In this document: positions 2,684 through 38,544 of the stretch, piece by piece
Layout of the letters: the number at the start of each line of letters is the position of its first letter
Position numbering within the stretch: position 1 is the first letter of the stretch
Position numbers and translations under genes: made by a program
The notes under the pieces: generated by a model
What the model was told of the DNA's origin: nothing
Databases searched by the model: none
Seen by the model: the letters and a program-made list of their open reading frames with translations, nothing else
NCBI GenBank assembly: GCA_051362555.1
Contig: CM120640.1
Coordinates: forward strand, 23,732,225 to 23,796,224
Length of the DNA stretch: 64,000 nt
Direction: 5' to 3'
Source of the DNA: Lingula anatina
Taxonomy: Eukaryota; Animalia; Brachiopoda

Positions 2684-2992
2684 CCCCCTCTGCCCCTCCA
2701 CAAGATGTCACCGGCGAGATAGAGGGAGCCACTGCTATCATCATCAAATGGAGTCCACCTCCTCTCAATGCCCGGAATGGGCAAATTACGGAATACAAAA
2801 TCCGCTATGTGGAAACCGAAAGTGGCCAACAACTGCAGGAGGCGTCAGTGGTCACTGTGCTTGGAGAAAAAGACAGTGTGGTCATACGCAATCTAAAAAT
2901 TTGGACCAAGTACACAATATGGGTACAAGCAGCCACTAGAGTGGGCCCAGGCCCCAACTCTGTCCCTATTGTAGTTCGAACTGATGAAGCTG
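2684..2992 (+). CDS. Lar: Lar exon: FN3 repeat (PSAPPQDV...VVRTDEA)
   Basis: Acceptor tag at 2681-2683, donor gtatgt at 2993, phase 1-1, FN3 W/Y/L motifs. Confidence 0.92.
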
Positions 2993-5900
2993 GTATGTAC
3001 TAGATATAGTTGCCCCCTGGGTTGTGGCTTGCATTCCTAGTTTGAACTAACACATTAAAACTTAACTAGCTAAGTGGTGGTTGGTTGGTTGGCATTTCTC
3101 CACTGCTTTCTTAAATCTCTTCAGGGTCAAGATTCTGAGTGCCTGTTGATATAGCCTTATTTCTAGATGCCATGTCAAAAAATTCAGAAACATGATTGCT
3201 TGACCTTTTGGTTTGACCTTTTCTGTCTGGTGGACTGGGTACTTCCAGCCTTGCTGTGTGCATGCGGTGGGATGCTCTCTAGGGTGGGTCTGCATGCTCT
3301 TTAATACATAACTGGACTTTTGAACATGGATTGATGTGCTGCCTTGGTATTTCAGCTTATTAATCTCTGTATACTTGATATACCTGAACATCACAGTTAT
3401 TTGCAGACACATGGGCAATCAATAGAGCCTGGCCTAATAGCTTTGAACAATGGAAGTTAATGCTGTTTCAATCGTGGTCAGCATTTGCTTCAAAGCAAGT
3501 GCTTGTTTGTAAAAGAATAAAAAACGATTACTCAGCACATCTGGTTTTCCACAAAGAAAGCTGGTCCTTCAAAAATTAGGCCCGTTACAAGGACTTTGAA
3601 AAAATGCAGAGTTTTTTGTGATCTTTCAAAGCTGAATTGGTAAAGAATATTTGAAACCTTTTGTCTTTCCTTTATCCTTGAAGTAATCTTTAAATGTATT
3701 TTGCAATTGGAAGTTTGCCAAGATTACAGTTTATAGTCATTCACGTAATTGGTTCTGATTTAGCATCAGCCCAAGTGTATTAAATTGGTGGACAAAACAA
3801 GAAATTTATAGTGACTGTCAAAAGTAGTCATCAACCAGTCCTAGACAGTTGGCATTAGAAAAGAAATGGAAAAGTATATCATTTGTCTGATTGAATTACC
3901 AAATTAAGTCAGCTAAGTGAACTTAATTTATTTTCCGGTAGCCTAATATGAAATCAGATAACAAAGTGACATTACTGAGGTAGCAATTTATCTTCACTGC
4001 TAGATCCATAAACTCTGGATATTGATTAGTATAGGGAGTTCAAGTGACCATCAATTAAAGCAAAACTGTTGTGTACTTTGATGAAGTAAATTATTAATGT
4101 TCGCAACCGAGAATGTGAGCGTTGGTTGTGGCAGAATAAGTCTAATTCATGGGAAATTACTCAAGCTGAGTGTCTCCAGTGACTAGAAACTACTTTAGCG
4201 GCTAGAGGGTTTGTGTGACAAAATATATTGGTTATTCTTATCAAGAAATAAGAGATGAATTAAAGGGGCCCTCCTTGGTGTTATCAGATGAAGCCTTATG
4301 AATATAAGATCATAGGATCTGTAGACATTTAAATTCAGTGCAAGCAGGGAATTTTGTTGGATAAAAGTGACTGTCCCAGTAATTATAGAGATAATATACC
4401 AGTGATAAAGCCAAGAATGCCCATCCTTTTATCATATGCACTGACCATTAACAATGGAAAATGTTTTGATAAAGAATATCTGAGGAGGTTGGTTTTGAGG
4501 AAAGACTGAAAAATTATGAAGTGAATTGTATCCACTATGTTGTTGTTGTTTAACATTTATCACAGCTAGGAAAATAAGTTATCAGTCACTTCAGACACTG
4601 TTTCTGTGATAACGAGCACTTACTCATTCTTGTAGCTTTTATGGAATCCAAATTTGTATTTCTTGTAAATAAAACATGAACACTCCTTGTCTTTATCCTT
4701 CACATTTCCAATTCTGACTTTTCCATTACATCCAAAGTTCCCTCTAGATAGGAGAGAGAAGAGAAGATGGTTAAATGTGTGGCCAACTCTTTTCTCTCTC
4801 TCTTTTTTTTTTTTTTTTTTTTTTTTGTGCATATGAACTCTGCCCTTTGAAATGAAACTTTGTTTAACTTCCTGAAAAGCATGTAAAAATTGAAAGTTCA
4901 GAGTGTAAACCAGCTGATCAGTAGTTAACTGTAAACAACATGAACCACAAGTAGAAGAAAGGACCAGCTTCATGGTATAGAATTTTGGAAGATAAGGGTG
5001 ATAATATCTCGTGTATTAAGCCAGTTTTTCAATTTGAGAGCCTTGTGCACTTCCTTTCTAAAGATTTTAGTGTATGGCTCAAGAAAGCTTCAGGATATTT
5101 ATTCTTTAGCTTAAATAATATTGCTTTCCTCTTTTTTATGTTAGTGGAAGATATGGCCATGTGATAAGCCTAGGGACCCTTCCTGTTTTCTTTTGGAATT
5201 GGATACATAATATAGCTGAAACCCAGGGTGCTGTAGTCAAGTAGTAACCCCAAAACTAAAGCTTTGTATCCCAAAATTACCTATTCCAATCTTCTCTCCA
5301 TCAGAGACTAGAATCAGACATCAGTGAATTCCATACCTGTGACTGTCTGCTAGATGACTACAGTTATGTGCTTTCACTGGAGTTCCACCTTCTAGGCAGT
5401 GTTATGCCAGGCTTGAAACTATGACTGGTCATCTAGTGCAGGATCCATAATAAGCTTGTTGGGGATGGGTTGGATTGTAGTTAAGAATTAATGAAGTATC
5501 TGGAGTATAACTTCATTTGGCAGTCTGGAGTAGGGTTAGAGGTGTGGAATGTTATAGCAAGAGCTTTATGTTAATTATTTTTGTCCAATTTTTATACAGG
5601 CTTAGAGTGAAACGTGGAAAACTAACGTTATAACACGTGAAACATTTGATGCCTGTCGTGAAAATCAGATTGGAAAAAAACTGTTGCTAGTTGATCTTTT
5701 CTCCAAATAATAATGTCAAAAAGTAGTTTCAGTTTAATGCACAGCAAACAATACAAAAAGGTAGGAAAATGATAAATACCAAGCTTAATTGTCAGTTCAT
5801 ACTCCATTAGACCTTGAGCAGTACTTGAGGACATATTTGTATGAACATTGAAATATGGGAAGAAAATCGATAGCAAGAATGTGCAAGTTGTAATTGCAGC

Positions 5901-8900
5901 GTCCCAGAGGAAGGCAATATTATCTCTCCCTGTCTGCTAGTTTAATGGACCTAGTTTCTCCCACTTTTTGTTACATGTCAAGAATGTATACAGCAATGCT
6001 AGCTTGAAAATGTCAGGAAAAATGACACTTTGGTTTTTAAAAAAATAGCTAGGAATATTGGTAAGGTCTTAGAAATGTACTCTCCAACAATAAAGCACCG
6101 GAAAAACCTGTGGTTGTGACATTTACCAGGGCAAATTGAGTGGAGTAAACGAGGTTTCTTTTAACATATAACAGATGTAGCTTTTGATTAGAAAACTCTT
6201 GGTGCTTTCCCAGACCCAGTGCGGTTTTTGCAGGATTATTGATGCAGAAATGCGCAGGAAAGTTTTGTTGTCATAATTGTTAAAAACTTGCAATGAACAT
6301 TTTGTAAGATGGAGTAATCATGAGACCAAAACTTAGGACCAAAGAACCATTCACTGGATGTTGAATCACAATTATCAAATGAGCCACACTTGTTTTTGCA
6401 TGTTTATGAATTGCCTAATACAAAAAGTTCTCTGTTACCAAAAAAAATTGAATTCTTCTTTAATGTCAATACCAAAAGCAAAAGATTGATCATTTGTATT
6501 TGTGCATTGAAACACTTATATAGAAAACAGAACCTGAAACTTCCTTTTCCTGGTTTCATATGCCCTCTTCTGCATTCACGGTTTTCTAGTCGTTTATCAA
6601 AAACACAATATCCGTCTTTGAACTGGTGGCTCTACTAGCTACAGTCAAGGGAGGAAATGAGAGCTTAATGTCGACGATAGGATTGAATTGGAGATTCAGG
6701 AAAATCATTTTGTGCAGCCTACTAATACTATGCCATTGTCTAGACCTCGCAAAGTTTTGGGTTTTATGCTGTAGTCAGGTTGCATACTAACAGTATAATT
6801 AATGAGAAAGATATGAGTTGGGTTAATGGCTTTTGACCAAGCATGGTGCTTTTTTATAGGGTTTTATTTATTGCATGATAGACATCTGTATTTTATCATT
6901 GCAGGTTTATTTCCAAGTTGACAATTTTTAAAATGGCATTACCAAGAACAATGTAATAAACTAATAAAATAAACTTTGAGTGTTAGCTACTAATAGCGAA
7001 AAGAATTCAATTGTTATTTTTTATGAATTTTATGGAGTACAGTTACAACAAATACTATTGGATTATTATAATAACCAAGGAAAAATAAAAAACAGTTTCA
7101 CAATAATCTAAAAAATTATGTAAATTTTTTGCTTAAATTCATATCTCGGTTAGGAAATAAAAGCTGTAATCTGTACCTTTATATGCTTTTATTTAATCTG
7201 TCATTCTAGTCCCAGGCAGGCCTGAGCGGGTTAGAGTGGAAACTGTCAACTCCACTGCCATCCGGGTGAGATGGAGCTCACCGGCTCCAGACAAACGAAA
7301 TGGCATCATCCGCGCCTATGTAGTGATCTACGGAAAAATAGACATCAGCAGCATGCAGTTAATAGGGAACAGGAAGCGCCATACGGTCAGCGGTGGTCAG
7401 GTGACAGAAACGGTCATCACTGGACTGCAACCAGATTCTTCCTACAAGTTCCAGGTGGCTGCAGTGACTGGGAAGGGAGATGGCATTTATAGCAAGGGGA
7501 AAATTGCTAAGACATTAGGGGCAGGTAAGTGCAAAGATTTCATAGAATTTATATCTATAGATACCTTACTGTTTTTCACCTTAAGCAAAGTCAGATTTAA
7601 CTGATTCATTATTGGTGAATCATAAAGACCCATAAATCTTAGACTCAAAAAAAAAAAAAAAGTTTTTTATGAAAATGAGTACCCAAATAAGAAGGTATAG
7701 ATTGAATAAGTGCTGAGCTGTTGGTAATTGATTCAAGTGCTTGGTAACTCTGCCATCATTAACACCTGGTTCTTGTTGAAGATTTGATTTAAGGGTGACT
7801 AGTTCTTTTATTATAAAGTCCAAAAGAAATGCAGATTGAGTCAAGAAATGGACTATTGATGATTTGCTGTTTATCTCCAAAAATGAGCACAGGAATACAA
7901 GGGGAATTACGATTTGTAATAAACTTTTGATTTCTTTCATAATTTTATGATTTTGAGCAGCATTGAATATATACTGATGGCTTCATTTCAGTCCCAGAAA
8001 GACCACGTTCCTTCAGAGTAAATTTAATCAACGAAGATCCACCCATGGTACAGCTGGTATGGCAGCGACCTAGGAATATCTATGGAGCTCTGCAGGCGTA
8101 TAAGTTGGAGTACGGAAAAGTTGGTTCTGACAAATTTGAGACTATAGCACTTGAAGCTGAACAGTACCAGCGCACAGTAACGTCACTAGGTATGTTTTCA
8201 TGTATACGCACTGGAGGAAAAGTAGAGCAAAAATTTATATCGATGGCATTTGTATGTTGCCCCTGAAAGCATTCATTTCCACTGGTATTTTCACATAATC
8301 AAGAGATCTATAAGCTTGTTAGCCAAGATCATAGAACTTAATCTCCTGGAGTACTGCCGTGAATTAACAGAGCCAGGTGTGCAAGTCTGATTGCCTGTCC
8401 CTTCAGGGTGTTTATTTAAAAAGAAAGAGTTCAAGAGGGGAAATGAAATTGGTTTTACCAACCTGTTGGTTTTTTATGGAGAAGTGATATTTAAAAAAAA
8501 GATACATTTTTGAGTTGTAAATCTTTCGTAACAATAGTGAAGGCAATATGTAACATTCAGCTAGGGCAGTAAGGAAGTGTTAATGTCTTTTCTCTTCCCC
8601 TCTGTAGACAGACTATTAGATCATCATCTAATGTGTCTATTTTAAGTGCCTGCATTAGTTCCAATAACAAGCTCCCTATTAATGTGAAGGCCATTGCAGA
8701 TTCAACAGCTCCATAGTGGGTCACAGATATCACTAGCTGCAGCTTGGATTGTATTTCAGCAAGTCTCTGAAATCCAATAATTTTTTTGTAAAGCAGAACA
8801 TTTCAGGATCTCAACTGTCATTATTGTAACTTTGATGTTATTAAATACATAAATGATGATCAATTTATGGACCATGCTAACAGATATAATGGGACAGTTC

Positions 8901-11900
8901 TGTTGACATTTTGCATAGATTTGATGAATGCCATTGTGTATTATGAAATTAATGGATGTTCTTTCACAATGTGCACCATTGATTATATACATCTATTCTT
9001 GTTTTCTTTACAAGACTGAGGTTAATACTCTCAAAAATTGCCGCCATGTGTTACTAATGGAAAAGTGATGTTTTTCCTCAATTATTATTGCTTAACAGCA
9101 TGTAATTTATTATAGATCTTTCCAAGTCATATAAAAGCTTTTTACTTCAGTTCTGAAATATGTAAATAAATATCCGTTAACTTTATAAATATTGTCATTG
9201 AATTTGAATTGTATGATAATCACTCTAAAATGTATTATACAAATATCATAAATTTATTTTATAGATCGTGGTGCTGAATACGAGTTCCGACTGTCAGCCA
9301 GAAACACTGTCGACTATGGCGAAAAGGCAGTACAGAATATCAAAACACCAGATTCTGGTTAGTATGTCTACTCTGAAGCCCTCTGAATAAAAAAAGCGCT
9401 GGAAAATATGGGATGCGTTTCACATTGATTTCAAGTGAAAACCTCCGATGATAATTGCATTTTTCTCCAAAGACCTCGACTAAATGCATCTTATCACTTC
9501 CTTGTATGTGAACTTTTTCCCCACCAGTTCTACATACTTAACCAATGACAGTGATGCAATTATTATTAAAAGGTGCACTCTCTTTACTTGACTAAGTCTT
9601 ATAATCATATATTATACATTATCATTTTACTTGGCTATAATCCTTTGAAACATGTAAAAGAATATCTGCATTGAATGAGGGAACAGGCAGTGTGATACCA
9701 GCCTTTAGAGTGTGGCCATCACTATAATTGACAAGAGAGATATTATCATGTGCATTCCAGTATTGGGTTAATCTTAAATTTGTTTTCCCTTTTTAGTTTT
9801 TCATTTGGTGCATTACATCTATGTAGTCGTATGATTTGATTCAAGTGGCATTTGATATTTTCAAATTTCGTTAGTATCTGATAAGTTGGTATTTATGAAA
9901 TGTAAGAATTGATCAGGGAGTCCTGCTAATGGACCGAGTAGTCCACAGGTGTGAGATTGGACAAGATCCACTCCAACTCACTGTGGGCATGTAAATAATC
10001 TGTAATAAGAAAGCATTGATGGGACTCTGGAGAGTCCCTTGAATTACCCACATATAGAAAATACAGTAGTGGGGCTGAATGGTGCTGTTTCCAATGTTTG
10101 ATGGATAGAGGTTGAAAATTGAGTGCTGGCATGTAATAATCATGAATGTGAAACAAGGCACTTAGTACTGACTAGCATAATTATAGAAAGGGGAGAGGAA
10201 ATTCTTAAGGGATTGGGGGATGTCCCTCTGAAAGAGTACTAAGTTCAATTAATACATTCTTACCAAGTTCAGAAGTCAGGATTGTTTGATATCTTTAGCC
10301 CTCATTCATATTGTTTTCCCCAATAACTTGTGACATTCCAGTAAACTTGCTGTCTATACCCTCCTTTCTTCCTTCCTTCAGTACCCTATGGATACCCAAT
10401 GAACTTCACCATGAGCGCCAAGACTAGCACAGTGGCTCAGTTGAGCTGGAAGCCACCTCCAGCTGACCAGTGCAACGGCAGGATCATCATGTATGAAATA
10501 GAGTATTACAAGAAGCTGGACGACATCAATTCCTTCTCATTGAACGTATCACAAATGGAGACTGAAGTGTCTGGGTTGGAAACCAACGAAGTCTACTTGT
10601 TTCAAATCAAGGCCTACACCAGCAAAGGACCAGGGCCATGGAGCCCTAAATATCAGTTTAAGACATATAAACAATGTAAGTTTTGTTCCCAGTCAATTCA
10701 GTAAAATAACCCACACCTATATATCCTTTTTTCTTGCCCATCCCCTTCTATCACCTGTAGCCATATTTCTGACTGCTACTTAGTGTGTGTATCAGTGGAA
10801 GTGTGGGTGGAAGTATGGAATGGTGTGCAGTCTTCCTGGATCAAATTGTTAGGTTGAAGAAAATGAAATTCCACAAAACATTCACTCCCCAAAGGATCAT
10901 TTCATAATCTCCAATTATGTTATCTTTGGAAGCAACCCAGTGTAACGGGCAGCCAGGCATCATTGATTTGTTGATAGAGTTGTGTGTTTTTTGCATGGTG
11001 TGTGATGTCAGACAAGATGATATATTGCAGTATGTTATAACCACATGTGCTTTATGCAAAATCCATGTACTGAAATGTGATTAGGCTGCATCAATGTTTA
11101 CCACTTTGAGAGACATTGTGGTACTTCTACATGGAAAAATGTCATATTGAACATGGAGATCGGAGCATGTTTATGTTAATGATTGTGGTACTATTTCAGT
11201 TCAGCATACATATTGATCAGTTCCATTCTATGTTTTATGTTATAATTTTTTTTTTTTTTTTTTACCTTCTGTCAGATGTAAATTTTTACATTTGCAAGTG
11301 AGACAAAACCTCGATACGCTAATAGATAAAGAAAAAAAAAGAAAGAACAGGACTTGATGGTTTTGCCTTTGAAGGTGGTAAAGCCTGTTCTGGTTAATAT
11401 CTGTACAAAACCAGAATATTGGACTCCCAATTATTGGCATTTCTTGGTAGATTCTAGTTATTGGTGTCAGGAGACCTTTAAATTTCTAGTCTGGTTTCTT
11501 TCTAGGTCCCAAGGGGACATAAAAATAGAGGCATCTATTGGAAGCAATTCCTTATTGTTTTAAATTTCATTCTAAAAGTATTTTCTATGACCCTGTTGAT
11601 AAATATGGAATTTTCTTTAAAAACAGTTCATCCATACTACTGACAATTAATACCACATCAGCATATATTAATTTTGTAATTGTTCTTCCTTTGAAATCTT
11701 TTGAGTTCCTTGTGCTCTGAATAAATGTTGCACTTAATTATACTGAAAATGAACATGATTGGATATCTGTATTATGCTCTATCAGGATATTTCATTTGCT
11801 GCTTGCTATTTGTTTTTCTTTTCCATGTTATCTTAATTGTGCTATGTTGAATTTTTTTACACTTCAGTGCCTGCAGCACCCACCAACATTAAACTTCGTC

Positions 11901-14900
11901 GCACATCTCACTCCACTATCCAAGTGACGTGGAATGCCCCCAACTTCCCCATCAAGGGTTATAGAATATTCTATAGCTCTTTCCCCAACAGGGACATGGA
12001 TCTGTGGACCAAAAAGACTATCCCGCCAGTGACTGCCACTGACTTGATTCAGTTAACTGACAGTTGTTACTATGTGCGCGTCCAGGCCCAGTCGCTGGAT
12101 GGAAGATTTGGAAACCTGTCCGATCAAGAAGAAAATTGTGAGCAGCCTCCAGGTAAAATATTCACCCTTCATCCCACCCTCTTTGCTCCACACTCATATA
12201 TTTTAGATGTGAATGGTTTGATTCATGTTGTTCTTATCATGTCTTCAAAATCTATATGATATTTGAAGTTAAATTCACAGACTCTGTCTTCTCCTTGCCC
12301 AGGTATTGGCAAAATGACTGCAGGGGCTGCAGCTTACCATGCTCATGTTTAGATAAGCTATGAATTCACTCAGATATTTGGCATTTTCAACAACTTTCCT
12401 CCCTTTCTGCCTACCAACACTGGGGTTTATCTCGGTATAACATATTTCTACACCAACTACTCTTGGTAATGGGAACCAATCCACAATGTTATTTTCTTAT
12501 GAAACTTGAGATTGCTGGCACATTGTTTGTATGGCATACGCTGATACTGTAACCCAGTGTTTTCTGTAACTCTGTCGGCATAGAACCCAACCATTTTACA
12601 TGTAGCATTCTGGACACCCTATTGTTTGGATTGCCGTGGAGATGTCCCAGTTGTTCCCTTGATGTTTTTATCCAAATTGACAGCATCAGGATTGACTGTA
12701 CTGTACTGTAATTCCCCATCGTTATTTACATGTAGTACATCTGCATCATTCAAGTTGCATGGACTGCATTAGAGCAGTAGCTGCCATTGAAATGTAACCT
12801 ATGTCAAGAGAATTAAAATAATATGTAGGTGGCTATACAGAAGGACAAGTTATAGATAGGAATGTAATGATTAGAGAAAAGTTAAAGAATTTTAAAGATG
12901 CAAAACCTGGTCAGTAATAGTCTCTTCTCTCATGCTCACTCTCGTCTCCATAGAAATCCCCCAGTGTGTCCGCTCCTTCACAGCAGTGGACACTAGCTCT
13001 GATTATGTAGTCTTGGACTGGGACCCTCCACTCACACCAGGTGTGGTGAAGTATAAGGTGAGCAAGATACTGCTGGAACAACTTTGTCTTGCAAGATACA
13101 TATGTATATAGCATTGGTGTTAGGAAACTAGTATTACTGCAGATATTAATACTTGACCAGAATTTCAGGCTTAATATTGTTTTAACTGTTGTGGAATAAA
13201 GTTTATTGAAGAATTTGTGAAACCAAAAGAAAAAGAAAAAAAAAGCTGTGGTATGATAGACATTAACAGTGGTCCCGTCTGTCTCTCCCTATAGATCTTG
13301 TACGAAGGTAGCCAGAGGGACATTCTTGTCCATCCTAGGTCAGAAATAACTGTGCGCAACCAGGAACGGGTCAAAATCAGCGAGCTATTTCCTGAGACTC
13401 GCTACACTTTCAACATCAGCGCTCAGTTCTTAGACGGGTCACTTGGGCCATATGTATACACTTTGGCTGAAACACAGAGAGGAGGTCAGTGGATAGTGCT
13501 TGAGCCAGAAATAATCCTGGCTCCTGAACTGCATCATGCCATAGCAAAAAAAGATTAATATTGCATGAAATGCAGCATCTAATAGACAGAGAGTCCACAA
13601 ATGCCCTGTAATTTTTTTATCAACTGCAGTTATCATATTCTCCCTTGACTAACATTGAGTGACTAATTTGATTGCAATGTTCATTCATGCTGAATGAAAT
13701 AAGGTTTGATCTGGAAATTGTATGAAGTAATTTCATTAGCACTAACTTCAGTTATTCTCTGAACCCCTGGTTGAGCAATCTTGATTATTTATAGCATGCA
13801 GCTACCATAAAGCTTTTATATTTTCAAGAAATATTCTCACAGTACCCACTTGTATTGTCATTTCCTAAGACATAGAGTAGATCTAACCATATTTGCCAGT
13901 TTATTTACTTGGATAATTAAAAACTGACTTGGTGCATTCCTTATATTAAGCTTTCTTTTCTAGTCTTCATGATGCTTTTCTTTTTGCAGAGTACATGGAC
14001 GACATAAAGTACATTTTCGTAAAAAAAGGACGCAATCTGGTCTTACAATGTTTTGCCACTTTCCAAGAAATTCGTCCAGCTAAACAACTTTATTGGAAAT
14101 CAACCTACAAACACCTTGATGAATCTTATATTATCAACCGGGTGGATTCTACAGGAACTCAATTTTTCTCTACTGTCGTCATTAATAAAACTCGCGTCGA
14201 ACATTCAGGCGTCTTTTTGTGCCGGACAAGCGGTCGTATTTTGAAAAAATTCATAGTGAAAGTTCACAGTGGCTCTTATCATCCCCCAAAACCCAAGGGT
14301 GAGCTAAACTTTTCTCTTTCAAGTCTGTTTTCAGTATTTTGTCCTTGTCTTGACTTGACCTGCCCCCTACCTACCATCCCCATCCTACATAACATGCATG
14401 GTATGCTGCCTCGCCTGTCAACCTGAATGTTTTCATATATTGCATGAATCAAAATGTTGCATGGTTTCATATACTTGTTCATTGCATGTGTTCATGTTGT
14501 TTTCAGGAGTTGAGTGTGTAAGCACACTCGGCTCAAAGAATCAATGCAGCTACATTGCAGTGAATCATCAGTATATTTGAAGTGTTCTTTTTTGAGCACA
14601 CTTGGTTTGAAATTATGCAAGAGAATAGTCGCATTATTTGATCACACTTTTTCACTGACTGAAGGTGCAATATTCCCTATATATTTGTAAACAGTAAGAC
14701 TCGCCTACTGATGTATTTCCATTTCAGTGATGTTTGTGTAGGTATAATAATATTATATCAATACCTAATGTGCTCAAACCTTTATGGTGCCATTTTGAAT
14801 GTTGCATGATTTTGCAGACAGTTAGATGTGGAAACCCAAAGTGTGAACAGCAAGACTTCCAAACATTGAAAACTCTAACATTCTGATATAAGTTCATTTT

Positions 14901-17900
14901 AGTTTCAGTTATGGGCATGATCTATAACATTTTAAATGGCATAGCATACATGTACAGCAGTGTATGTTGGAGAACTTTTTGAGACTATTTCAACTTAATC
15001 TAGCTCTTGACAAGTAATGTTTTTCTTACAGTCCTTGAACGTCCACAATTCCGAAAAATGAATGAGGATAAAACCATAGGATTCCAGCTGAAATCTCGTA
15101 GTCGTATCGGCAAGGTGGACTATTACTGGGTTGTTGTGGTGCCCAAGTCCCACTTTGACATCAAGGAACCCAATGAATTTGAAGAGAATGAGGTATGGCT
15201 GTGGATAAGTATACTTTTATAGAACATGAAAGATGATAAATTTATTGTAAAATTGCAGAAGTTCATATAGTTACGTGTATTTTTTTCTTTTGTGTGATCA
15301 GATCTCTCATGCTTCTAAATTAGTTGACTTGCTACCTAGGGTATGATTTGGTCTTCTCCCCTCTCTCACTTCTAAATTAGTTGACTTGCTACCTAGGGTA
15401 TGATTTGGTCTTCTCCTTGGCATTCACCATGACTGTTTTATTTTCCAGCTGCAGAGTGATATCAGTCCAGCCTACATTGCAGCCCAGTTTGAGGGAAATA
15501 ATCTGCCAGACATGTTTTCTTTGAGTGATGGAAACATGTATGGGAATTACAGAAACAAAAGGCTAGATGAGAATGAAGAATATAAAGTCTTTCTACGTGC
15601 AGTGACAACCGAAAATGTGAGTATAGAGTAGCCATAGAGTATAGAGTGAGTATAGCGTAGAGTAGAGTAGCCATAATATAGATCCACATATCAGCTTTAC
15701 CTGTTGACTGTTTCATCTGTTCACTGTTACAGACTTGGATCCAACAAAACTATTTTCACACGAGTATAGAGTGTTTTTGTTTCTTCATTAGATCAAATCA
15801 CAAAAATTGATCAAATGTTGGAAACTGCTCGTATGTATTTAATGGCTGTGTTTCATATTAAAATATGTCAATATTTTGTTACATGAATAAAAGCTTCAGT
15901 GAAGTAATGTCTTATTTATTGGATTTTAGGAGGTCACGTCCAGTGACTACTCTGAGCCATTCAGCCTGAAGAGAGGGGTGCCTCCCAGGAGAAGCCCTCT
16001 GACCCCTGCTGGAGGAGGTTTTATCTGGATTGTGGGGGTAGTTGCAGCAGTCATTCTCCTCATTATCTTCATTGTGATCGTCTTCTTTGTTGTCAGGTAA
16101 GACTCGAGTCTTCAAAGTTAATTACAGTTATGGGACAAACTGTGACGCTTGGTTTGTGATGTCTGTTTTGCATATCCCAAATATGTTGTGATTGCTTGTG
16201 GGAAAGTTTTTTATACTATGCTATGCTGTTGGTGTTTTACAGGAGAAAATCAAAGAGGAAAGAGAAGGCCCCGGAGCCTACCAAAGTATTTGTTGATCCA
16301 ACACCCCCAGGGCCACAACACCCAACAGACCCTGTAGAGATGAGACGGATGAATTTCCAGACACCAGGTACAAGCAGTTATAAACTCATTGTTTCTTTAT
16401 CCATGGTAGACTAAGCATTCAGATTGTCTTTGGTCGATTGCAAACACTGGCTTGCAGTTAAAATACAGTAACATTTAGATTGAATGTAATATAGTCTACT
16501 ATACTAGTTATATTTGTTACAGTAGTGGTTCTCTGGGTGCCAGGCAGCAATGTTAACATCCATATCTATCCGTACACAAACATTGTAAAAGCATTGCAAT
16601 AACTGTAATTTGAAAATCCCTGACATGTGCCCATTCTTTACTGCAGCCATGATCAGCCACCCACCTATCCCAGTAGAACAGCTGGCTGAACACATAGACA
16701 GACTGAAGGCGCAGGACAACCTGAAGTTCTCTCAGGAATACGAGTCAATAGAACCAGGCCAGCAGTTCACATGGGACAACTCCAACTTGGAGGTCAACAA
16801 ACCCAAGAACCGCTACGCCAATGTCATCGCTTATGACCACTCCCGGGTGATCCTTCAGCCTCTAGATGCCATCACAGGCAGTGATTATATTAACGCCAAC
16901 TACATGGATGGGTACAGGAAGCAGAATGCATATATTGCAACCCAGGGTCCACTGCCTGAGACTTTCTGTGACTTCTGGCGTATGGTGTGGGAACAGAGGT
17001 CAGCCACAATTGTGATGATGACAAAACTGGAGGAGAGGTCAAGGGTAAGCTGATGTAGACTAATGTGGAACAAAATCTGAGTGTCCTTGGCTTGTGAAAC
17101 TAAAAGCTTAGACATTGTGTATACCTTGAAAGGTTGATAATTTTAGGCTGAAACAGACAAGAAGATGATAGAAGAACACTAAACAATATTTAAAAATTGA
17201 GCCTTTTCCTTGGCTAATCATCATGAAATCCTCTAAGTAGTTGTAAATTAAGACTAAGGATAGATGCACTTACCTCAATAGATTAGCTAAGTATTGTTTA
17301 TGTATGCCAAAAACAGTCTCACATTCTCTCTTTAATGTCAAATTTTAAATTCTAATTTATTGACCTTTGATTTTTATATAGATCAAGTGTGACCAGTACT
17401 GGCCACTCCGCGGCACAGAGAACTATGGCGTGATGCAGGTGACCATACTGGACATCATGGACCTGGCCACCTACACCATACGCACCTTCCAGCTGTCACG
17501 GCAGGGCTATCCAGAGAAGAGGGAAGTGAAGCAGTTCCAGTTTACAGCCTGGCCAGATCATGGGGTGCCGGATCACCCCACACCTCTACTGATGTTCATG
17601 AGGAGAGTGAAAGCTAGCACACCTCCAGATTCAGGGCCCATGATCACACACTGCAGGTGAGAGGGGCACAGTGATCAGTTCTGTATTTTAGGGTATGAGG
17701 TATTTGATAGCAATTTGAAAGAGGACTTTTTCCTCATGATAAGCCACAAAACGGTGATTTAGTTTAAGCCAAAAGCAGAAGAATGGAGTGGTATTGTTAA
17801 AATCTGGTGAATGATTATGTTATTTTATTGTACAGTTCATCGTCACTGCCCAAGTTTTATATAGTATTTTCTCTCGCCTCTTCCCAGTGCTGGTGTCGGA

Positions 17901-20900
17901 AGAACAGGTGCTTTTATTGTCATAGATGCCATGTTAGAGAGAATACGCCATGAAAGAACTGTCGACATCTATGGTCACGTCACATGCTTAAGAGCACAGA
18001 GAAACTACATGGTGCAAACAGAAGACCAGTATATATTCATTCACGATGCCCTTCTGGAGGCAGTCACCTGTGGAAATACAGAGATTCCTGCCAGGAATTT
18101 GTACGCACATCTCCAGAAACTCACACAGCCAGAGCCAGGGGAGACAGTCACAGGAATGGAATTAGAATTCAAGGCAAGAAGAATTTATTTCTATTCTGAC
18201 ACCTTTCTTTCTTGGTGATTCACAGATAATTGTATATGTTTATAGTGCTATTTAATGTATAAATAGAATGGAAAAGTAACCAGAAAGCAGAAATGAAGAG
18301 GCTATAAGTTGCTAAGCATTACCTTCATTTATTTATATATATTTTGATCATACCAAAAGTGGGTTTGTATTGATATTTCTTGTCCCACTCTTCCAGAGGC
18401 TAGCTCACACCAAGGCCAACCCTTCCAGGTTTGTCAGCGCCAATCTTCCAGTGAACAAATTCAAGAACAGATTAGTCAATATCCTTCCATGTAAGTTGTT
18501 CTCTTGTCATAGTAGAGAGAGAGTTATTTGTTATGTATTCATGATGTATCTTTCCCTGGAGTGAGCAACTCAACTTCCAACAAGTGCGGATTTATTGCTT
18601 AATGGAAAAATCATTGCGCAAGAGCAGTTCCAGTTGAAGCAAGTATCTTGAAGGCATATTGCGTTATTAGTTCATAGTGTGCAAATGGCTGAAGATAATT
18701 ACTGTAGTTGATTTCTATCTAAAGCTGAAAATAGGTACCTGATACCTGTCACATACACGCAAATATAGATCCGTGATTGAGACATAAATGTCATATCCTC
18801 TGTGGTTTAATTGTAATAGATGTGAAAATAAACCAATTGTATTTACCAATGGCAGGAAGTTGTCAGATTATCGATCATCAAAGAGAAATCATTTATTTGT
18901 GAGAAGAAATTGTTTAGATATATGATTAATCTCTCTGGTTACGTGATAATGATGGTCAATAAAGTGGTATATAAAAAGCAAATTTCTTTTTCCATCCAGA
19001 TGAAAACACCAGGGTGTGTCTCCAGCCAATCCGAGGGGTTGACGGCTCAGATTATATTAATGCAAGCTATATTGATGTAAGCATAATCACATTCACCATA
19101 TGAAATAGCATTCTGTGTGGGAAACTTCATAATCATGGATGGGATAAGATCCCAGGTTCTGTGAGGACACCCAGTCATTATGTACTAAATGACTGATCAC
19201 AGTATGGTACAAAAAATGGCAAACTATTGATTGTTCGTGTGGCATTGATTTAGAGATCAATAGCTTTGGCAAAATGCACGTAAATGTCTCTTAAATGATG
19301 ATGATTGCCATGTTTTATGTGTACTTTAAAAGGTCTGAGAGAATGGGTTTAAAGCCAGTATATACCCATGGTAGAATGGATAGATAGATTCAGCAAGTTC
19401 ATTCAAGTAAATACAGATTGTATTTAATCGAGGGCTAATATAAGGCTCATAGTTTCATAAAGTCAGATTCAAATATAAAATTACTACTAAGCAGAACATG
19501 GTTTCCATATTATATTAAAAGTCTAGATAAAACATGGTAAGCAAAAAGATGGTGCAAGAACATGGTTAGCAAAATGATGGGGTGTAGTAATTTCAAAGAA
19601 AAAAAACTAGTAGGTATATTTTGATGGGTATTGATGGATATTTATATATTTATGTTCAAAATGAACAGGTCACCTTGAAGTGTTATATTTTTACATTATG
19701 TTGTCTTCTGTTGCAGGGTTATAGGTACCGAGGTGCCTACATTGCCACACAGGGTCCCTTGGGAGAAACCACAGAGGACTTCTGGAGAATGCTGTGGGAG
19801 CATAACTCTACAATCATTGTCATGTTGACAAAACTCAGAGAAATGGGAAGGGTAAGTTTAGTTTTCTTACTCAGATATGTAGCATGTACATGCTTTCATT
19901 GAAGATATATGTAGTTTAGGAATAAAAAAAAAAGAGAGAGAAAATTGTGAAATAAACACTAAAAATTAATGGAACTTGATATTTTGAACAGCAGTGAAAA
20001 AGATTTTATGTCTAACATTCTTTTAAAAATCTGTCTATGAAAGTACCCCTAAATTCCATCTATATGAAGTTTCCTATTCTGTGTTCCCAGGAGAAATGTC
20101 ACCAGTACTGGCCCAGTGAGAGATCTGCCAGGTATCAGTATTTTGTGGTGGACCCCATGGCGGAGTATAACATGCCTCAGTATATCCTGAGAGAATTCAA
20201 GGTCACAGATGCCAGAGTAAGTTTGATCAATAGCAAACAGGCTTTTTCTCTGGAGAATTTAGAAAATATTGTAGAAGATATTAATGTTGTGAAAGAAAAT
20301 AGTTTGTCTTCAACATACCTGGAAAAGTATGAATGGGACATTAAACAGGACATTGATATACATCATGTAATTATGACCAAATTACTAAAAAAAAAACATA
20401 TAAAGACACTACTCATCAGAAGTACAAAATTGTATTTTCATGTTGACTGTTTGTATTAATATTTTTAACTAACAACTTTTGGAAATTGTAATAATTATTT
20501 ATACTCTCAGTTAAATTTATTATTATTATTATGTTTTATGAGATACATAGTTCTAAATCAAATTTCTGCCCCTCCAGGATGGCCAGTCGCGGACCATCCG
20601 TCAGTTCCAGTTCACAGACTGGCCAGAGCAAGGAGTGCCCAAGTCTGGGGAAGGGTTCATAGACTTCATTGGACAGGTGCACAAGACAAAGGAACAGTTT
20701 GGACAGGATGGACCTATATCAGTGCACTGCAGGTAGGTATTATGAAACTGTGACATGGCTCTGTTAAATAGATGTATTCTCCATCCATTTGTTATTGGAA
20801 GTTATTGGACTTAAAATATTTAAACAATAGAGGACAAAATATTTAAACAATAGAGGACTGTTAGCGGAGGTTATAAAAGGGAATATGGATTTTTCTTTCT

Positions 20901-21565
20901 TCTCCTGGCATTTTCTGTTCCCATCCTTATCCAAGTCCCATTGAATTCATTGACTACCAGTTCACTTGTGCTATTTTTGTATGCAGTAGCAGTATGAAGT
21001 TATGAAGTCAAAATAACTACAATGCATGCAGTGGGAGATAACATGTTAATCCTGTAAAAGTCCATTTTCTGCCAGTATCATCATTTCTGATATCATGACA
21101 TTATTCCTTGCAGTGCTGGCGTGGGTCGCACCGGTGTGTTCATAGCCCTGAGTATAGTCCTGGAGAGGATGAGATATGAGGGCGTGGTGGATCTCTTCCA
21201 GACAGTCAGAATGCTGAGAACACAGAGGCCAGCCATGGTACAGACAGAGGTGAGTTCTCCTGGCCTGTTCTCACATTTTCTTTTCGTTATGGGTGCTCTT
21301 CTAGTAAATAATGTACTGTGAATTGAGGAGCCAGATGTTAGGTTATGCTTTGTGCTTTTATCTTTTTATTTTAGTCTAAGAAAATAACCTTAAGTCACTA
21401 TACGGTTTAATATTTGAGGACTTTCCATAAACAGCAGTAGGATAGACCATTTATACCTCTACATGTTGATTGATCAGAGTTTGTCTTTATTTGCAGGACC
21501 AATATCAATTCTGCTACCGTGCTGCACTGGAGTATTTGGGCTCATTTGACCACTATGCAAATTGA
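2684..21565 (+). CDS. Lar: LAR-family (type IIa) receptor-type tyrosine-protein phosphatase, 5'-partial, 23 exons in window
   Basis: Exons traced at AG/GT boundaries with consistent phases: 2684-2992, 7210-7524, 7992-8189, 9265-9357, 10382-10675, 11868-12152, 12954-13057, 13295-13484, 13990-14298 (Ig, probably alternative), 15032-15192, 15449-15616, 15930-16096, 16243-16367, 16647-17044, 17382-17656, 17888-18173, 18397-18490, 19000-19076, 19717-19851, 20091-20216, 20578-20732, 21114-21249, 21497-21565. Encodes FN3 repeats, a TM helix, D1 ([17 protein letters not shown]), D2 ([17 protein letters not shown]) and the C-terminus [11 protein letters not shown], all typical of PTPRF/PTPRD/PTPRS/Drosophila Lar. 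Confidence 0.96.
7210..7524 (+). CDS. Lar: Lar exon: FN3 repeat (VPGRPERV...KTLGA)
   Basis: ctag acceptor and gtaagt donor; resembles vertebrate LAR FN5 (NSTAI.V.W, TGKGDG..SK). Confidence 0.93.
7992..8189 (+). CDS. Lar: Lar exon: N-half of FN3 repeat
   Basis: ttcag acceptor, gtatgt donor; [10 protein letters not shown]...TVTSL. Confidence 0.9.
9265..9357 (+). CDS. Lar: Lar exon: C-half of FN3 repeat ([31 protein letters not shown])
   Basis: Not in the ORF track. atag acceptor, gttagt donor, phase 1-1, and it completes the FN3 domain (Y.F.L.A.N..G). Confidence 0.9.
10382..10675 (+). CDS. Lar: Lar exon: FN3 repeat (VPYGYPMNF...KGPGPWSP...YKQ)
   Basis: Polypyrimidine-cag acceptor, gtaagt donor; [11 protein letters not shown] motif. 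Confidence 0.93.
11868..12152 (+). CDS. Lar: Lar exon: FN3 repeat (PAAPTNIKL...EQPP)
   Basis: ttcag acceptor, gtaaaa donor, phase 1-1. Confidence 0.9.
12954..13057 (+). CDS. Lar: Lar exon: N-part of FN3 repeat (EIPQCVRSF...[17 protein letters not shown])
   Basis: catag acceptor, gtgagc donor, phase 1-0; not annotated on this strand in the ORF track. Confidence 0.87.
13295..13484 (+). CDS. Lar: Lar exon: C-part of FN3 repeat (ILYEG...[13 protein letters not shown]...ETQRG)
   Basis: ctatag acceptor, gtcagt donor, phase 0-1. Confidence 0.88.
13990..14298 (+). CDS. Lar: Lar exon encoding one immunoglobulin-like domain (probable cassette exon)
   Basis: ttttttgcag acceptor, gtgagc donor, 309 nt, phase 1-1. 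Ig hallmarks: V..G.NLVLQC, LYWK, STVVI.....HSGVFLC. Confidence 0.8.
14395..14488 (+). promoter_or_regulatory. Cluster of four TGCATG (Rbfox-binding) intronic splicing elements
   Basis: TGCATG at 14395, 14441, 14458 and 14483 (plus 14803), about 100-190 nt downstream of the Ig-exon donor. Confidence 0.6.
15032..15192 (+). CDS. Lar: Lar exon: membrane-proximal ectodomain (YYWVVVVP)
   Basis: ttacag acceptor, gtatgg donor; matches the LAR WFYIVVVP-type segment. Confidence 0.88.
15312..15416. repeat. 48-bp tandem duplication (period 57) in a Lar intron
   Basis: cttctaaattagttgacttgctacctagggtatgatttggtcttctcc at 15312-15359 and 15369-15416. Confidence 0.9.
15449..15616 (+). CDS. Lar: Lar exon: membrane-proximal ectodomain (PAYIAAQF...F.L.DG..YG.Y.NK.L....Y.VFLRA)
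   Basis: ttccag acceptor (a second in-frame cag lies 6 nt downstream), gtgagt donor; conserved RPTP juxtamembrane motif. Confidence 0.88.
15930..16096 (+). CDS. Lar: Lar exon: transmembrane helix ([25 protein letters not shown])
   Basis: ttttag acceptor, gtaaga donor; SSDYSEP motif followed by about 25 hydrophobic residues. Confidence 0.9.
16243..16367 (+). CDS. Lar: Lar exon: cytoplasmic juxtamembrane (RRKSKRK...[15 protein letters not shown])
   Basis: Basic stop-transfer segment and the LAR-diagnostic DPVEMRR.NFQTP motif. Confidence 0.93.
16647..17044 (+). CDS. Lar: Lar exon: wedge and PTP D1 N-part
   Basis: [40 protein letters not shown]. Confidence 0.97.
17382..17656 (+). CDS. Lar: Lar exon: PTP D1 (KCDQYWP...WPDHGVP...HC)
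   Basis: Canonical PTP motifs; atag acceptor, gtgaga donor. Confidence 0.97.
17888..18173 (+). CDS. Lar: Lar exon: PTP D1 C-part and D1-D2 linker (SAGVGRTG...QTEDQY...GMELEFK)
   Basis: cccag acceptor; ends at the non-canonical GC donor AAG|GCAAGA, which is needed to join in frame with RLAH of the next exon. Confidence 0.93.
18397..18490 (+). CDS. Lar: Lar exon: PTP D2 start (RLAH...KNRLVNILP)
   Basis: ttccag acceptor, gtaagt donor. Confidence 0.94.
19000..19076 (+). CDS. Lar: Lar exon: PTP D2 ([26 protein letters not shown])
   Basis: Not in the ORF track; ccag acceptor, gtaagc donor. Confidence 0.94.
19717..19851 (+). CDS. Lar: Lar exon: PTP D2 (GYR...IATQGP...FWRMLWEH...EMGR)
   Basis: ttgcag acceptor, gtaagt donor. 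Confidence 0.95.
20091..20216 (+). CDS. Lar: Lar exon: PTP D2 ([18 protein letters not shown]...VTDAR)
   Basis: cccag acceptor, gtaagt donor. Confidence 0.95.
20578..20732 (+). CDS. Lar: Lar exon: PTP D2 ([21 protein letters not shown]...VHC)
   Basis: ccag acceptor, gtaggt donor; the ORF track shows a different frame here. Confidence 0.95.
21114..21249 (+). CDS. Lar: Lar exon: PTP D2 ([10 protein letters not shown]...AMVQTE)
   Basis: ttgcag acceptor, gtgagt donor. Confidence 0.95.
21497..21565 (+). CDS. Lar: Lar last coding exon ([22 protein letters not shown])
   Basis: ttgcag acceptor, TGA at 21563-21565; LAR-type C-terminus. Confidence 0.95.
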
Positions 21566-26596: not shown

Positions 26597-27258
26597 TTAC
26601 AGAGACGTAAAATGTGTCGCTGTGCTGACATTACCGACACTTGTGGATGGAGTTGCACCACTTAGACCGTTCTCTACGCTTCCGCTAAGTTCGTGGAAAT
26701 CTTCCTTATTGGCTTTGTGCTGGTCCCATATTCCCTTTACCTCCTGTATGAGAGGAACGCTGATGATAAATGTTGCAGCGATTAACGACCAACCCTGAGA
26801 GAGATAGGTCCACCCTGCAAACAGCTCCTTGCTCAGGACCCGAAGCGCCGCCATTATTCCCGGCCAGACGATGACAAGAACGACAGTGAGGATGACGCCA
26901 GCTGAATACGCCGTGATTTTCGCAGGTCGAAACATCTTCAAAAATTCCCCGTGAGATGGTCGAGTGTCCTTGTTTTCCCTTGGTAGATGCCTATAAAGGT
27001 GGACCCAGGGATTGAGCGGGTTGTCGATATTTCGAGTTTTCTCCCATTCTGCGATGACATCTTCCTTTGAGACTCGTCTATTGGTCAGAAGGGCTACAAT
27101 GATGCAGGTAATGCCGCCAGAGCCAATGGAGACACAGTTCCCGACTAGCATGCTGTCCTCTTTACCTGTGTTGATGATAAAGTTGGCCAGTCCTCCCTCG
27201 TGTTGTGAGGATGTTATCAGCCAAGAGGTAATGCCAAGAACACACCCAACAACAGCGC
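26597..27258 (-). CDS. DUR3: DUR3-A last coding exon (ends ...HFTSL*)
   Basis: tttcag acceptor; [14 protein letters not shown]...VIVWP...VPLIQE; stop at 26597-26599. Confidence 0.92.
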
Positions 27259-30200
27259 CTGAAAGCGATCAAAATTACGCAAAGCAATGAAATCATTGAC
27301 TCCAATGGCTGGTGACGACCACTTGTAAGTTTTGGGACTTCGTTGAACAAAATAGGAAAAAAATATATTAATTGCCTTAGCGTTACTACTAATAGATGGC
27401 TTTGTTTCTACTTTTTGCCAATAAATAAAATATGTATACACCTTGTAGCACTTTTCAAGTCTACCGTATATTTTTACCTGATATCATTCCTGCAGCATTC
27501 ATCCTAGACCACGTGATAGCCAGACTGATTGGTATAACGACGGAACCAATCAGTACGCCGGTGAACAGGAAAACCCAGCTGAGGTTCAACTGGACGCCGT
27601 CACAGAACAGAATCCATGGAATTGTGAACGCAGAAACCCAAAGAATACACCAATTTTTGTAGTTCAGCAGTTGGGCCAAGTACTCCCGATACATCCCATG
27701 GACTGGACACTTGTTGTATGGTTTGACTCCCAGTTCGTGCTTGCTGCGTGCCGCAAGGGCGTCTTGCTGACAGATTTTACACAGGTTGACAGGAATGCAG
27801 GAACACTCGTTAATCCTATGCTTTCCACATAACATACAGTTTTCAGCAGGAAGATTTTTTCTGGAAATGTGTTCAGAATACGTGATAGTTAACATTTTTT
27901 TCTTTCAAATACTTGCAGAATTCGGACAATCAATATAACGCATGCAAGTCTATCAACTTTGTATTGCATTTGCCGAAAATTCATACCACATTTAAACAGA
28001 GGTTAAAACTTAATTAATATCCGTTGCAAACGAATAACAGCCATTTGATTGTATGATAGTTTGTACCTGATGATAACGAAAGTTACTCGTCTTTTGGAAC
28101 CACATTTTCCAGCCATCAACTACTTTGATTCACTACCATTTGGATAATTTTACAACTCTGTCATTCTTTGCTAGTGGTTACAAAATGTTGAATTTGACCG
28201 AAAATTTCAAACTTTCTCTGGGAAGCTGTAATTTTGCGATGTGATAGCTACACCATCACAGTTTATCATTTCATAAAAAGGGAAACAGCAGCTGCCCTTT
28301 TTAGGGCACACAGGAGAGTTGAACAGCTATACCCACCAAATCCAAGACGCGTTACCCTGGGTAATATATTTTGCACAAACTAATGAAAGTCTAATGGAAT
28401 GTTTTCAGTTTTAGTTTAAATCATAAGGGGGTGTTGTCTCAGTGCTTCAAAACTGGTTTTGAAGAATTTAATCCACATTTCATAATTAATAAAAATGGTG
28501 AATATGTGGGTCATGGTAACGTTATTGACGCGGGTCGAAAACTTTTTATAATCATGTAAATAATAACAATATTTTTGCTATTATCCATACACACTTCATT
28601 CATGAGGGGCACACCACTTTCACATGCTTTTAAAATGGAATTGACAAACACAGAGGAATAATTCACATATTTTATTTACTGTAACTCTGTCATATGGGAC
28701 ACACACTGAACAAAGTTGATCTAAAGAATGTTCCAGATTGTAGTTTTTTATCAGAACTATTATTTTTTTATTATTATTTTAACACAATAAAGTTCAGTTA
28801 AATACAAAATTTAACAAAATGAAGTTCAGTGTAACACAAAGTTCATAATTATAACATTCTTCCTGACATATGTAGACCAATGGTGATATCTGTTCTGTGC
28901 TCACTAAGGCATCCACTCTTGGGATTCTGAAAAAAAATCACACAAAGAATCTGTTAACTCTGATAACGAACAATGGATAACCTAAGATCACAAATAGTTT
29001 ATTGCTTATTCAAACAAAGTACAGTGCATTATGAGTGGCAAACACGCATTACTGAGACACATTTTCTTCACCCATTTTCGGTGCTTCATTGCGTAACGTA
29101 AGTGTTGCTAGTAATCCATTATTGCTGTTTTTACAGACGGTTAAATTTTAAACGCACGGAATACAGTGTAGCAGCTTAATTTAAGACAAAACTAAAAAAA
29201 AGTAATTCAATTTCGATGATTGAGTTTTCGAGAACAAGAGAACATGAATACGGTATCACCGCGTCACCATGTTCAATATGACCTTTAGTCCCCCATGTGA
29301 AACAGACGCAAAACGAAAGTTCAGACGAAGTCACCCTACTTATAGAATGGTAAAAATCAATCGGTACACAAATATGTTGAAACAATTGAAGAAAAATGAA
29401 ACGAAACTCATTATTTCTCACCTTCATACAAAGAAGATCCCAATAAACAATCCTGTGACGGTTAAATCGAGGGAATTACACCTGTGCCCTGCATCCTATC
29501 TCGACAGCGTCATTGCGTTATGCGTTATCAGAATGGGCCACCCGCCAGTTTGAGCTGGTTTTTTTAGTGTGCAAAAGAAGCCATTCGTGTGTAAGACGTC
29601 ATCAGTTAGTGAGTATGGAAGAAGATCGCTATCGATGTATAATTTTCACGCGGCATTTTAAAGTCGTCTGATAAAAATCGATCTCTGAAGTTTCAGCGTT
29701 GCGAACGTTATATTGGGACGCGGTGAAGAAAAATCGACCTTGCTGAGCAATAAATGTGAAATTCTTCAGAAAACTGATATTATCTTGGATTTCGTGACAC
29801 AAACTAACCGACATACTACTTTGGACGATTGAACAGTTTTAATACGGAAAGATAGGATTAGATGAAATTTTCATCGGGGTGGGACACCGCATGTATCGTA
29901 AGTTAAGCTAATTTTGTGATCATTTTTCAGTGACTTCAAATAAATTTTTATTTAAATAACAATTTGCACATTCTGTTTATTATATCTTCTTGCAGTAGAT
30001 GTATTTCCTGCTTCAATAATCCATTCAAACCCTAAACAAACTGTTCTTAAATAGAGGTAGGGTCAAAATTCCACAAAAAAGGACGCCATTTTGAGGGTTA
30101 TTTCGATATATTTTCTGCTTTTTCTATTTTTTTGCTTTTATAACAACATCCTCCTTGCTCATGCAGCTTCTTTGATTTGTTATTGAAACATACACAACGA

Positions 30201-32963: not shown

Positions 32964-34427
32964 TTCCTTGGATAGTAAACTGCGAAAAAAAATTCGAATG
33001 GATAAGAAAATACTCTCGATAATACAATGAAAATCCATTTGATACTTCTGAGTTTACAATATTTGGTTGTTTTTGTTTTTTTTACTTTACGGCACAGTCA
33101 CAAAATTGGCGCTTAACGATAAATGATGGATAATTATTTTTATACAGTCTGACAGTACTTAAAATTAACTTCCCATTTGCATATTAATAAATTTATAAAG
33201 AAATTAACAAAAACAACAGTGCCATGTACATATTTCACAATGTAAAGCATGCTCTCTTATCTTCTATCAGTACAATTTATGTTATTTATGTTATTGCACT
33301 TGTTTTATTTAAATCTCCTTCCTTCATTTCATGATAATTCTATCAATTTCCTATATTCAAGTCGCGTCTTACAATAAGACAACTTATTTGGTTCTATAAT
33401 GTTTCATGATGAACAGCTCGTCTGTCTATATCCCCCTCTACCTCGAATCCTCACGTCTTAGCAAACATAATTACTAATGAAAATATTCATTCAAGTATAT
33501 TTTTTTGCGACTGACCAGAAAACCCATCACTTCTCATTTTTACAATCCATAGATTCCATTGTTTAAGTTGCCCTCTTCAGCCTTCTCCTCCACATCTTGA
33601 CAATCTCTGTAAACGGCCAGTCTCAGTTTAAAACCAATCTGCACTACCTAAAATTCCCCAACTCGATTTCCGGTGACTATTCCCTTTGAAACCTGCTTGG
33701 AAGCTAGGATCCAATATAATGTTATGTTGGATTCTAGCTGGAACTTATTGAATCTACCGCTTATGTGTGTACACTTCGTTTCTTTCCGTCATTTTTTAAC
33801 CGCAAATTTACCCAACATTATGCATGATCATGTGGATTTTTTGGGGATATCAATTGCTTATTTTCGTTTAGAACAGTTGCATTGATTATTCAATTTAACT
33901 TCTTATGTTCACACATTATCTCTATTTGCCTATTTTAAATCCATTTCTTCGTTCGTTTTTTTTTCCTGTGTTAATACGAGGCGTAAATGACAGTACAATA
34001 ATTCAAGACAAAACAATTATATAAATAAAGTTATAGCTATAGATGTTAAAAAAATACAAAAAAAAAAAAAAATCCAGAGGATTGTTTTCGTATCCTATTT
34101 ACATTAGTCAACAGAGTTGTTGACAGGTCAACCAGACCACCCCCCACAGCCACAATCTCCCAGTTAAAGACTGACCACGCCACGTACTGCTTCTTTTGAC
34201 CGTGATTAATGCTAAAGGTCAATATCATCCAATGCTTAATCGAGTTTACAGTGCTATACTCGTAGCTGGTTTGACAAAGTAAACAACATCCCTATTCACC
34301 CAATCTAACCAAGGTGTACTGTTTTTCTAAATCTCCCTATAACGATCATGATACAGTGAAATGGATCACAAGTATACCTACATGTACTTCTCCTTTGGTT
34401 TCCGCTCCTTCTCCTCGCTACTGGTAC

Positions 34428-37909: not shown

Positions 37910-38544
37910 TTAAAATACACTTTCGTTTTCATTTGGTCTTATGGCACGAAGACCGTTCTCTACGTTCCCGTTGGTGGCGTTTGCATCTCTCTTATTGGCC
38001 TTGTGTTGTGCCCATATCCCTTTCACTTCCTGCACAAGAGGGACGACGATGATAAAGGTGGCAGCGATTAACGACCAACCCTGAGAGAGATAGGTCCACC
38101 CTGCAAACAGCTCCTTGCTCAGGACCCGAAGCGCTGCCATTATCCCCGGCCAGATGATCACGAGGACTACAGTGAGGATGACGCCGGTTGAATACGCCGT
38201 GATTTTCGCCGGTCGGAACATCTTAAGAAATTCATCGTGAGATGGCCGATCTCCTTTGCTGCGCCTTGGTATATGTTTGTACAAATGGATCCAGGGATTG
38301 AGCGGGTTGTCGATATTACGAGTTTTCTCCCATTCTGCGATGATGTCTGCTTTTGTGACCCGTCTGTTTGTCAGGAAAGCGACAATGATGCAGGTAATGC
38401 CGCCAGAGCTGATGGAGACGCAATTTCCTACTAGCATGCTGTCCTCTTTGCCGGTGTTGACGATGAAGTTGCCCAGTCCTCCCTCGTGATACGAAGCAGT
38501 TACCAGCCAAGAGGTAATGCCAAGAACACAGCCGACAATAGCAC
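37910..38544 (-). CDS. DUR3: DUR3-B last coding exon (ends ...NESVF*)
   Basis: ccttcag acceptor; stop at 37910-37912. Confidence 0.92.

Follow-up and report, generated by a model that had tools for sequence, protein, structure and literature searches.

Introduction

The LAR family (type IIa/R2A), to which Drosophila Lar and PTPRF, PTPRD and PTPRS belong, combines three N-terminal Ig domains with FN3 repeats, a transmembrane helix and tandem PTP domains, and the accessible parts of two reviews give the number of FN3 domains as five to nine (PMC10815196, PMC8711739). The splice variation described there consists of mini-exons (meA-D), each adding at most 16 aa, and of differences in FN3 number (PMC8711739, PMC10815196). 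Binding of glycosaminoglycans (GAG) is placed in Ig1 in the available portion of one of these reviews (PMC10815196), and the available portion of a study of PTPRS presents Fn9 as a second GAG site that is linked to clustering and inhibition (PMC12363564).

The motif recognized by Rbfox proteins is (U)GCAUG, and binding downstream of an exon usually raises its inclusion, according to the accessible text of PMC11874969. The accessible parts of two further sources report that the Rbfox motif and a role in muscle are conserved in Drosophila (10.1101/2021.05.09.443278) and that Drosophila Lar acts at muscle costameres (PMC9140312). For the brachiopod Lingula anatina, the genome paper describes shuffling of EGF domains and a heterozygosity of 1.6%, and its accessible main text mentions neither tyrosine phosphatase nor immunoglobulin (PMC4595640).

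Here we analyzed a stretch of 64,000 nucleotides of the L. anatina genome (the window), for which the original prediction had proposed an additional Ig-domain cassette exon in a LAR phosphatase. The Ig exon of Lingula Lar is real and unannotated, and it is probably regulated.

Results

The Lar gene and the place of the Ig exon

The window was found to contain FN3 repeats, a transmembrane helix and tandem PTP domains of Lar (Table 1), and a 132-aa piece of D1 is 100% identical to Lar of L. anatina (P0021), so that the predicted host gene proved correct. RefSeq isoform X1 (P0142), which maps to the window with 21 introns, has three I-set/Ig_3, nine fn3 and two Y_phosphatase stretches in Pfam, and its membrane-proximal domain gives a weak match to Fn3_PTPRU. 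The exons of the three N-terminal Ig domains lie upstream of the window. Identity between the window and RefSeq Lar is 98-100% per exon; since only a few residues differ, the window probably represents another haplotype. In the PTP region, the best fit to the RefSeq protein suggests a GC-AG intron at position 18173, with gcaaga as its donor. Elsewhere in the window, the minus strand carries a tandem pair of paralogues from the sodium:solute symporter family (PF00474), with near-identical exon layout, at ~26600-33050 and 37900-42500.

The insertion point of the Ig aligns with the start of a human PTPRS Fn9 construct (residue 1117, by our reading of a primer in the accessible part of PMC12363564), which places the Ig between the equivalents of Fn8 and Fn9. 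The proposed position behind the FN3 array is inexact in one respect: the "membrane-proximal region" that follows is itself FN3-like and corresponds to Fn9. All five RefSeq isoforms of Lingula Lar lack the Ig exon, and three of them (X3-X5) skip a whole FN3 module.

Table 1. Features of the Lar locus, in window coordinates
Feature	Position	Strand	Details	Basis
Part of the Lar gene in the window	2684..21565	+	FN3 repeats 4-9, membrane-proximal domain, transmembrane helix, PTP D1 and D2	tblastn, junctions, Pfam
Preceding FN3 repeat (vertebrate Fn8 equivalent)	12954..13484	+	exons 12954-13057 and 13295-13484; itself skippable	RNA, RefSeq
Polypyrimidine tract and AG acceptor	13970..13989	+	7.3 bits, rank 2 of 76 AG in the intron
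Ig-domain exon	13990..14298	+	309 nt, phase 1-1	sequence, Pfam, RNA depth
GT donor (gtgagc), candidate	14299..14304	+	9.0 bits, rank 1 of 86 GT in the intron	sequence score
In-frame donor read-through to TGA stop (14424-14426)	14299..14426	+	~41 extra residues	reads in RNA run X1 only
Four TGCATG (Rbfox-type) elements	14395..14488	+	14395, 14441, 14458, 14483	motif count
Membrane-proximal FN3-like domain (Fn9 equivalent) and transmembrane helix, exons	15032..16096	+		RNA, alignment, Pfam, junctions

Sequence of the exon and its Ig domain

Length, phase, splice sites and peptide of the exon all agreed with the original prediction, including the acceptor ttttttgcag before 13990 and the donor gtgagc after 14298. 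When the sites within 13485-15031 were ranked with a matrix built from the 21 introns of the Lar gene itself (Table 1), the scores of both sites fell in the range of constitutive Lar sites. The exon comprises 102 full codons and has no stop in the coding frame vs five in each of the other two frames; at intron composition the chance of such a stop-free run is 8e-4. Its symmetrical phase matches other module boundaries in the ectodomain of Lar, and its GC3 is 0.38 vs 0.45-0.69 in nine of ten other exon stretches.

The predicted Ig domain was recovered with Pfam ig (PF00047) at E 9.5e-7 and 29.5 bits (cut-off 21.8), and the peptide scored 26.5 bits with an Ig profile built from the collected proteins. 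Among the six-frame ORFs of the window, the exon was the sole significant match to the Ig profile made in this analysis (E 9e-7; next 0.18), and no further hidden Ig exons were detected by this search. The B- and F-strand cysteines (Cys20, Cys77) and the C-strand tryptophan (Trp35) are present, the tyrosine-corner position is occupied by Phe (H-S-G-V-F-L-C), and the peptide carries one N-glycosylation sequon and ends in a Pro/Lys linker. Ten atlas neighbours, among the matches listed, were all Ig clusters (0.92-0.94). Single-sequence AlphaFold2 returned an all-beta model of low confidence (pLDDT 46.6), so that the assignment of the Ig fold rests on the profile and motif evidence. The domain is strongly basic (net charge +11, pI 9.9), a charge that was matched by 11 of the 300 Ig domains compared.

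Skipping and expression of the exon

RNA was taken from seven of the nine runs found under the Lingula species label (X1-X7; tissues not given), with ~6 in 100 reads examined per run and 25 in 100 for X7. Six of the seven runs contained reads of the skip joint 13484>15032 (X1 1, X2 3, X3 0, X4 16, X5 15, X6 5 and X7 6); the flanking introns are of phase 1 and the product equals the RefSeq protein, which confirms the predicted frame-preserving skip. The inclusion joints 13484>13990 and 14298>15032 were not listed in any of the seven runs at the listing threshold of three reads. Sense-strand depth over the exon core reached 5.3 in run X1 and 5.8 in X3, vs zero in the deep intron of both. It was weak in X2 (~1.3), at background in X4 (~1), close to it in X6 (1.1 vs 1.0) and zero in X7 and in X5, though the upstream exon in X5 had a depth of 21. 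Relative to the upstream exon, depth amounted to 0.56 in X1, 0.88 in X3, 0 in X5 and 0.11 in X6. Of the proposed switchable module, skipping and sample-restricted expression were thus borne out, but an inclusion joint was not found at this threshold.

The two main runs behave differently at the exon ends. In X3, coverage is confined to the exon bins and is zero past the donor; the acceptor bin holds 72 bases, by our arithmetic and the cut convention of the tool equal to four reads of 18 bases, which suggests that four X3 reads enter the exon at its acceptor. The 12 bases in the X3 bin 14954-15032 are wholly accounted for by three reads coming from the 12152 exon, with none left from 14298. In X1, one read begins in the intron upstream of the exon, reads past the donor reach ~14419, and depth is 3.2 just after the donor vs 2.8 just before it; this equality indicates that the 3' end of the exon in X1 is read-through. 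An antisense fragment was present in X2 at 14234-14595. We infer that the exon is probably included as a spliced cassette. The runs with exon signal all come from one study (P1), so that tissue, library and population are confounded. In X1 and X3, the flanking exons had nine listed variant sites (eight synonymous) over 455 nt, and the Ig exon had no such site (P 0.04, computed with the coding rate over its 158 nt of best coverage), which gives modest support for constraint on the exon.

The neighbouring FN3 repeat (12954-13484) is also skipped in frame, through the joint 12152>15032 that equals RefSeq isoform X4; this joint was read 15 times in run X7, twice in X1 and once in X2, and loose ends were seen in X3 and X6. 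Given this skipping, the juxtamembrane ectodomain of Lingula Lar may have three or four possible lengths. Further downstream, a 57-nt tandem duplication lies in the intron at 15303-15416, and reads of runs X1 and X4 match ~40 nt at 15692-15738 with differences and then exit the window, probably being a repeat from another transcript.

A TGCATG cluster downstream of the donor

Four TGCATG elements follow the donor of the Ig exon at distances of 97, 143, 160 and 185 nt, and further copies lie at 14803 (the fifth downstream) and at 13562 (upstream). TGCATG is the top hexamer of the 200-nt stretch behind the donor, with four copies vs 0.07 expected (Poisson P 1e-6); the cluster was spotted post hoc, and correction for 4096 hexamers brings the value to ~0.004. 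It is the densest of the window, every other 200-nt stretch of the plus strand having at most two copies, and the window as a whole is not enriched (50 vs 47 expected). Four more copies (3259, 3291, 6397 and 6872) lie in the 4.2-kb intron that follows the FN3-4 exon, an exon skipped in RefSeq isoform X5; two of them are ~270-300 nt past its donor. No new micro-exon candidate emerged close to the remaining TGCATG sites in introns of the window.

Homologues and origin of the exon

The Ig profile detected no Ig after residue 420, that is beyond the N-terminal three, in any of 186 LAR-like proteins longer than 1200 aa, of which 160 have three Ig domains, 26 are partial with fewer, and five are from Lingula. 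The stated absence of an Ig behind the FN3 repeats of known LARs thus holds for all 181 non-Lingula proteins examined, a set made up mostly of vertebrates and molluscs, with a few arthropods and amphioxus, and with no Lar of another named brachiopod, a phoronid or a nemertean. The collection came from a first search of proteins of up to 2000 aa, to which the longest isoforms of six molluscs, among the matches listed, were added. In the first 121 LAR-like proteins, the 81-residue segment round the Ig junction was in no case longer than 90 residues. A search for a separately clustered isoform bearing the Ig, made with the flanks against proteins of 1108-3527 aa, returned the Lingula cluster alone (one of 279 candidates).

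Among 1.84 billion representatives, relatives of the exon peptide were limited to 17 generic Ig repeats (best E 5e-9, 33% identity), and none exceeded ~33% identity over the domain. A weak, word-indexed search of proteins of 180-2000 aa gave none in 20 candidates. The best sequence matches, VEGFR1 D3 (E 1.8e-6) and Drosophila Dpr-like and nemertean hemicentin-like repeats (27-33% identity), are at the generic level of the Ig superfamily, and none of the VEGFR1 D3, Dpr/DIP-like and Dscam-like domains marks a donor gene. No donor was found in either the protein or the metagenome searches; the one match among 126 metagenome stretches covers 22 residues in a non-Ig ORF and was rejected as chance. 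The lineage-specific exon shuffling proposed in the original prediction is thus no more than a putative origin. We discarded an origin by transposon or duplication: the exon is not flanked by long terminal or direct repeats, and the window contains it only once. A recent internal duplication from Ig1-3 of Lar is unlikely, since the local alignment scores were 27, 48 and 21, with shuffles reaching up to 42.

Discussion

Lingula Lar shares with the LAR family the order of three N-terminal Ig domains, FN3 repeats, transmembrane helix and tandem PTP domains, and likewise varies its ectodomain through skipping of whole FN3 modules (RefSeq X3-X5; accessible part of PMC10815196). What sets it apart is an entire optional Ig placed between the equivalents of Fn8 and Fn9; no such module was encountered in the 186 proteins or in the accessible parts of the reviews cited, and a literature search covering mostly papers outside subscription found no direct precedent for an optional Ig in LAR. 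The exon resembles Rbfox-activated cassette exons in having several UGCAUG within 200 nt downstream, in being skipped by default and in preserving the frame. Activation by Rbfox has been shown in vertebrates, fly and worm, whereas for the Lingula exon it is suggested by the motif and by sample-restricted coverage; in contrast to the Rbfox-activated exons compared, it encodes a whole domain.

We consider it likely that the Ig exon is skipped by default and that it is a cassette of Rbfox-expressing cells, which would add a fourth, basic Ig behind the last canonical FN3 repeat and in front of the FN3-like domain next to the membrane. Default splicing would yield canonical Lar. Where Rbfox is expressed, probably in muscle or neurons, its binding to the TGCATG cluster in the pre-mRNA would promote use of the donor, and the exon would be spliced in without disturbing the frame of the transmembrane helix and the two phosphatase domains. 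On RefSeq isoform X1 the predicted product has 2118 aa, and its flexible ectodomain would be one domain longer.

The same reads might also mark an alternative last exon or a retained downstream intron, in which the acceptor is used and translation past the donor ends at 14424-14426, so that a secreted decoy ectodomain with an Ig cap would result. The X1 reads beyond the donor, at a depth of 3 in a frame that stays open for 41 codons, fit such a transcript, the evidence for use of the acceptor is better than that for the donor, and Rbfox also acts on 3' ends from 3'-UTR binding (accessible part of 10.1101/2021.05.09.443278). However, ten poly(A) hexamer variants are all absent from 14299-15031, X3 has no coverage after the donor, and the X1 read-through may represent two fragments of unspliced RNA. 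Moreover, a terminal exon would not be expected to have a top-ranked phase-1 donor exactly where the domain linker ends. The TGCATG cluster right behind this strong donor is our main reason for preferring a cassette, with the missing poly(A) hexamer as a further one, and we regard a terminal exon as unlikely. We give still less credence to the possibility that the exon is an Ig fragment, inserted recently or already decaying, whose transcripts reflect only leaky splicing or pre-mRNA and which makes no functional protein. The unlisted inclusion joints, the low read numbers, the omission from every RefSeq isoform, the intron-like base composition and the lack of close relatives would agree with decay, but the frame and both cysteines are intact, the splice sites are strong, coverage in two runs is exon-shaped over zero intron background, and the exon has a TGCATG cluster and is free of variants while its flanks have many.

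As to origin only, the exon could be an older, rarely included module of other lophotrochozoan Lar genes that is unannotated there too. Its divergence from every Ig in the databases suggests age, and the annotation of Lingula itself missed it, so that those of other species could have done the same; these were compared by protein models and not by introns, and one search excluded proteins of more than 2000 aa. None of the 181 non-Lingula proteins has the exon, however, although 109 were short enough to have held it, and it is absent from the longest (X1) RefSeq isoforms of Octopus, Mytilus, Mizuhopecten, Pomacea, Littorina and Babylonia. An older module thus appears a minority possibility.

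The presumed GAG site of Ig1 is the loop that follows its C-strand Trp. In Lingula Lar, the first eight residues of this loop contain one Lys/Arg vs 3-4 in 12 other LARs compared. The basic-poor Ig1 loop, the basic charge of the optional Ig and its position next to the Fn9 equivalent make contact with GAG or matrix our best guess for its function, with plain spacing as a fallback. Such contact would likely tune clustering and hence phosphatase activity. A bolder, rather improbable proposal is that Lingula Lar has moved its GAG sensing to a splicing switch, with a newly shuffled, strongly basic Ig beside the Fn9 equivalent whose inclusion is confined to muscle or nerve that expresses Rbfox. If true, each tissue would turn on the proteoglycan switch of Lar for itself, through a module close to the membrane.

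The finding concerns one non-model species and a predicted function, which limits its reach; it corrects the annotation of Lingula Lar by the exon 13990-14298. Throughout the bilaterian proteins examined, LAR-family ectodomains follow one plan of three Ig domains and then FN3 repeats, and an optional Ig with a ready-made signal for tissue splicing would be a clean case of a domain entering a conserved receptor while leaving the default protein undisturbed. The exon may therefore serve as a natural variant for studying how ectodomain length and the Fn9 region contribute to the clustering and activity of LAR phosphatases.
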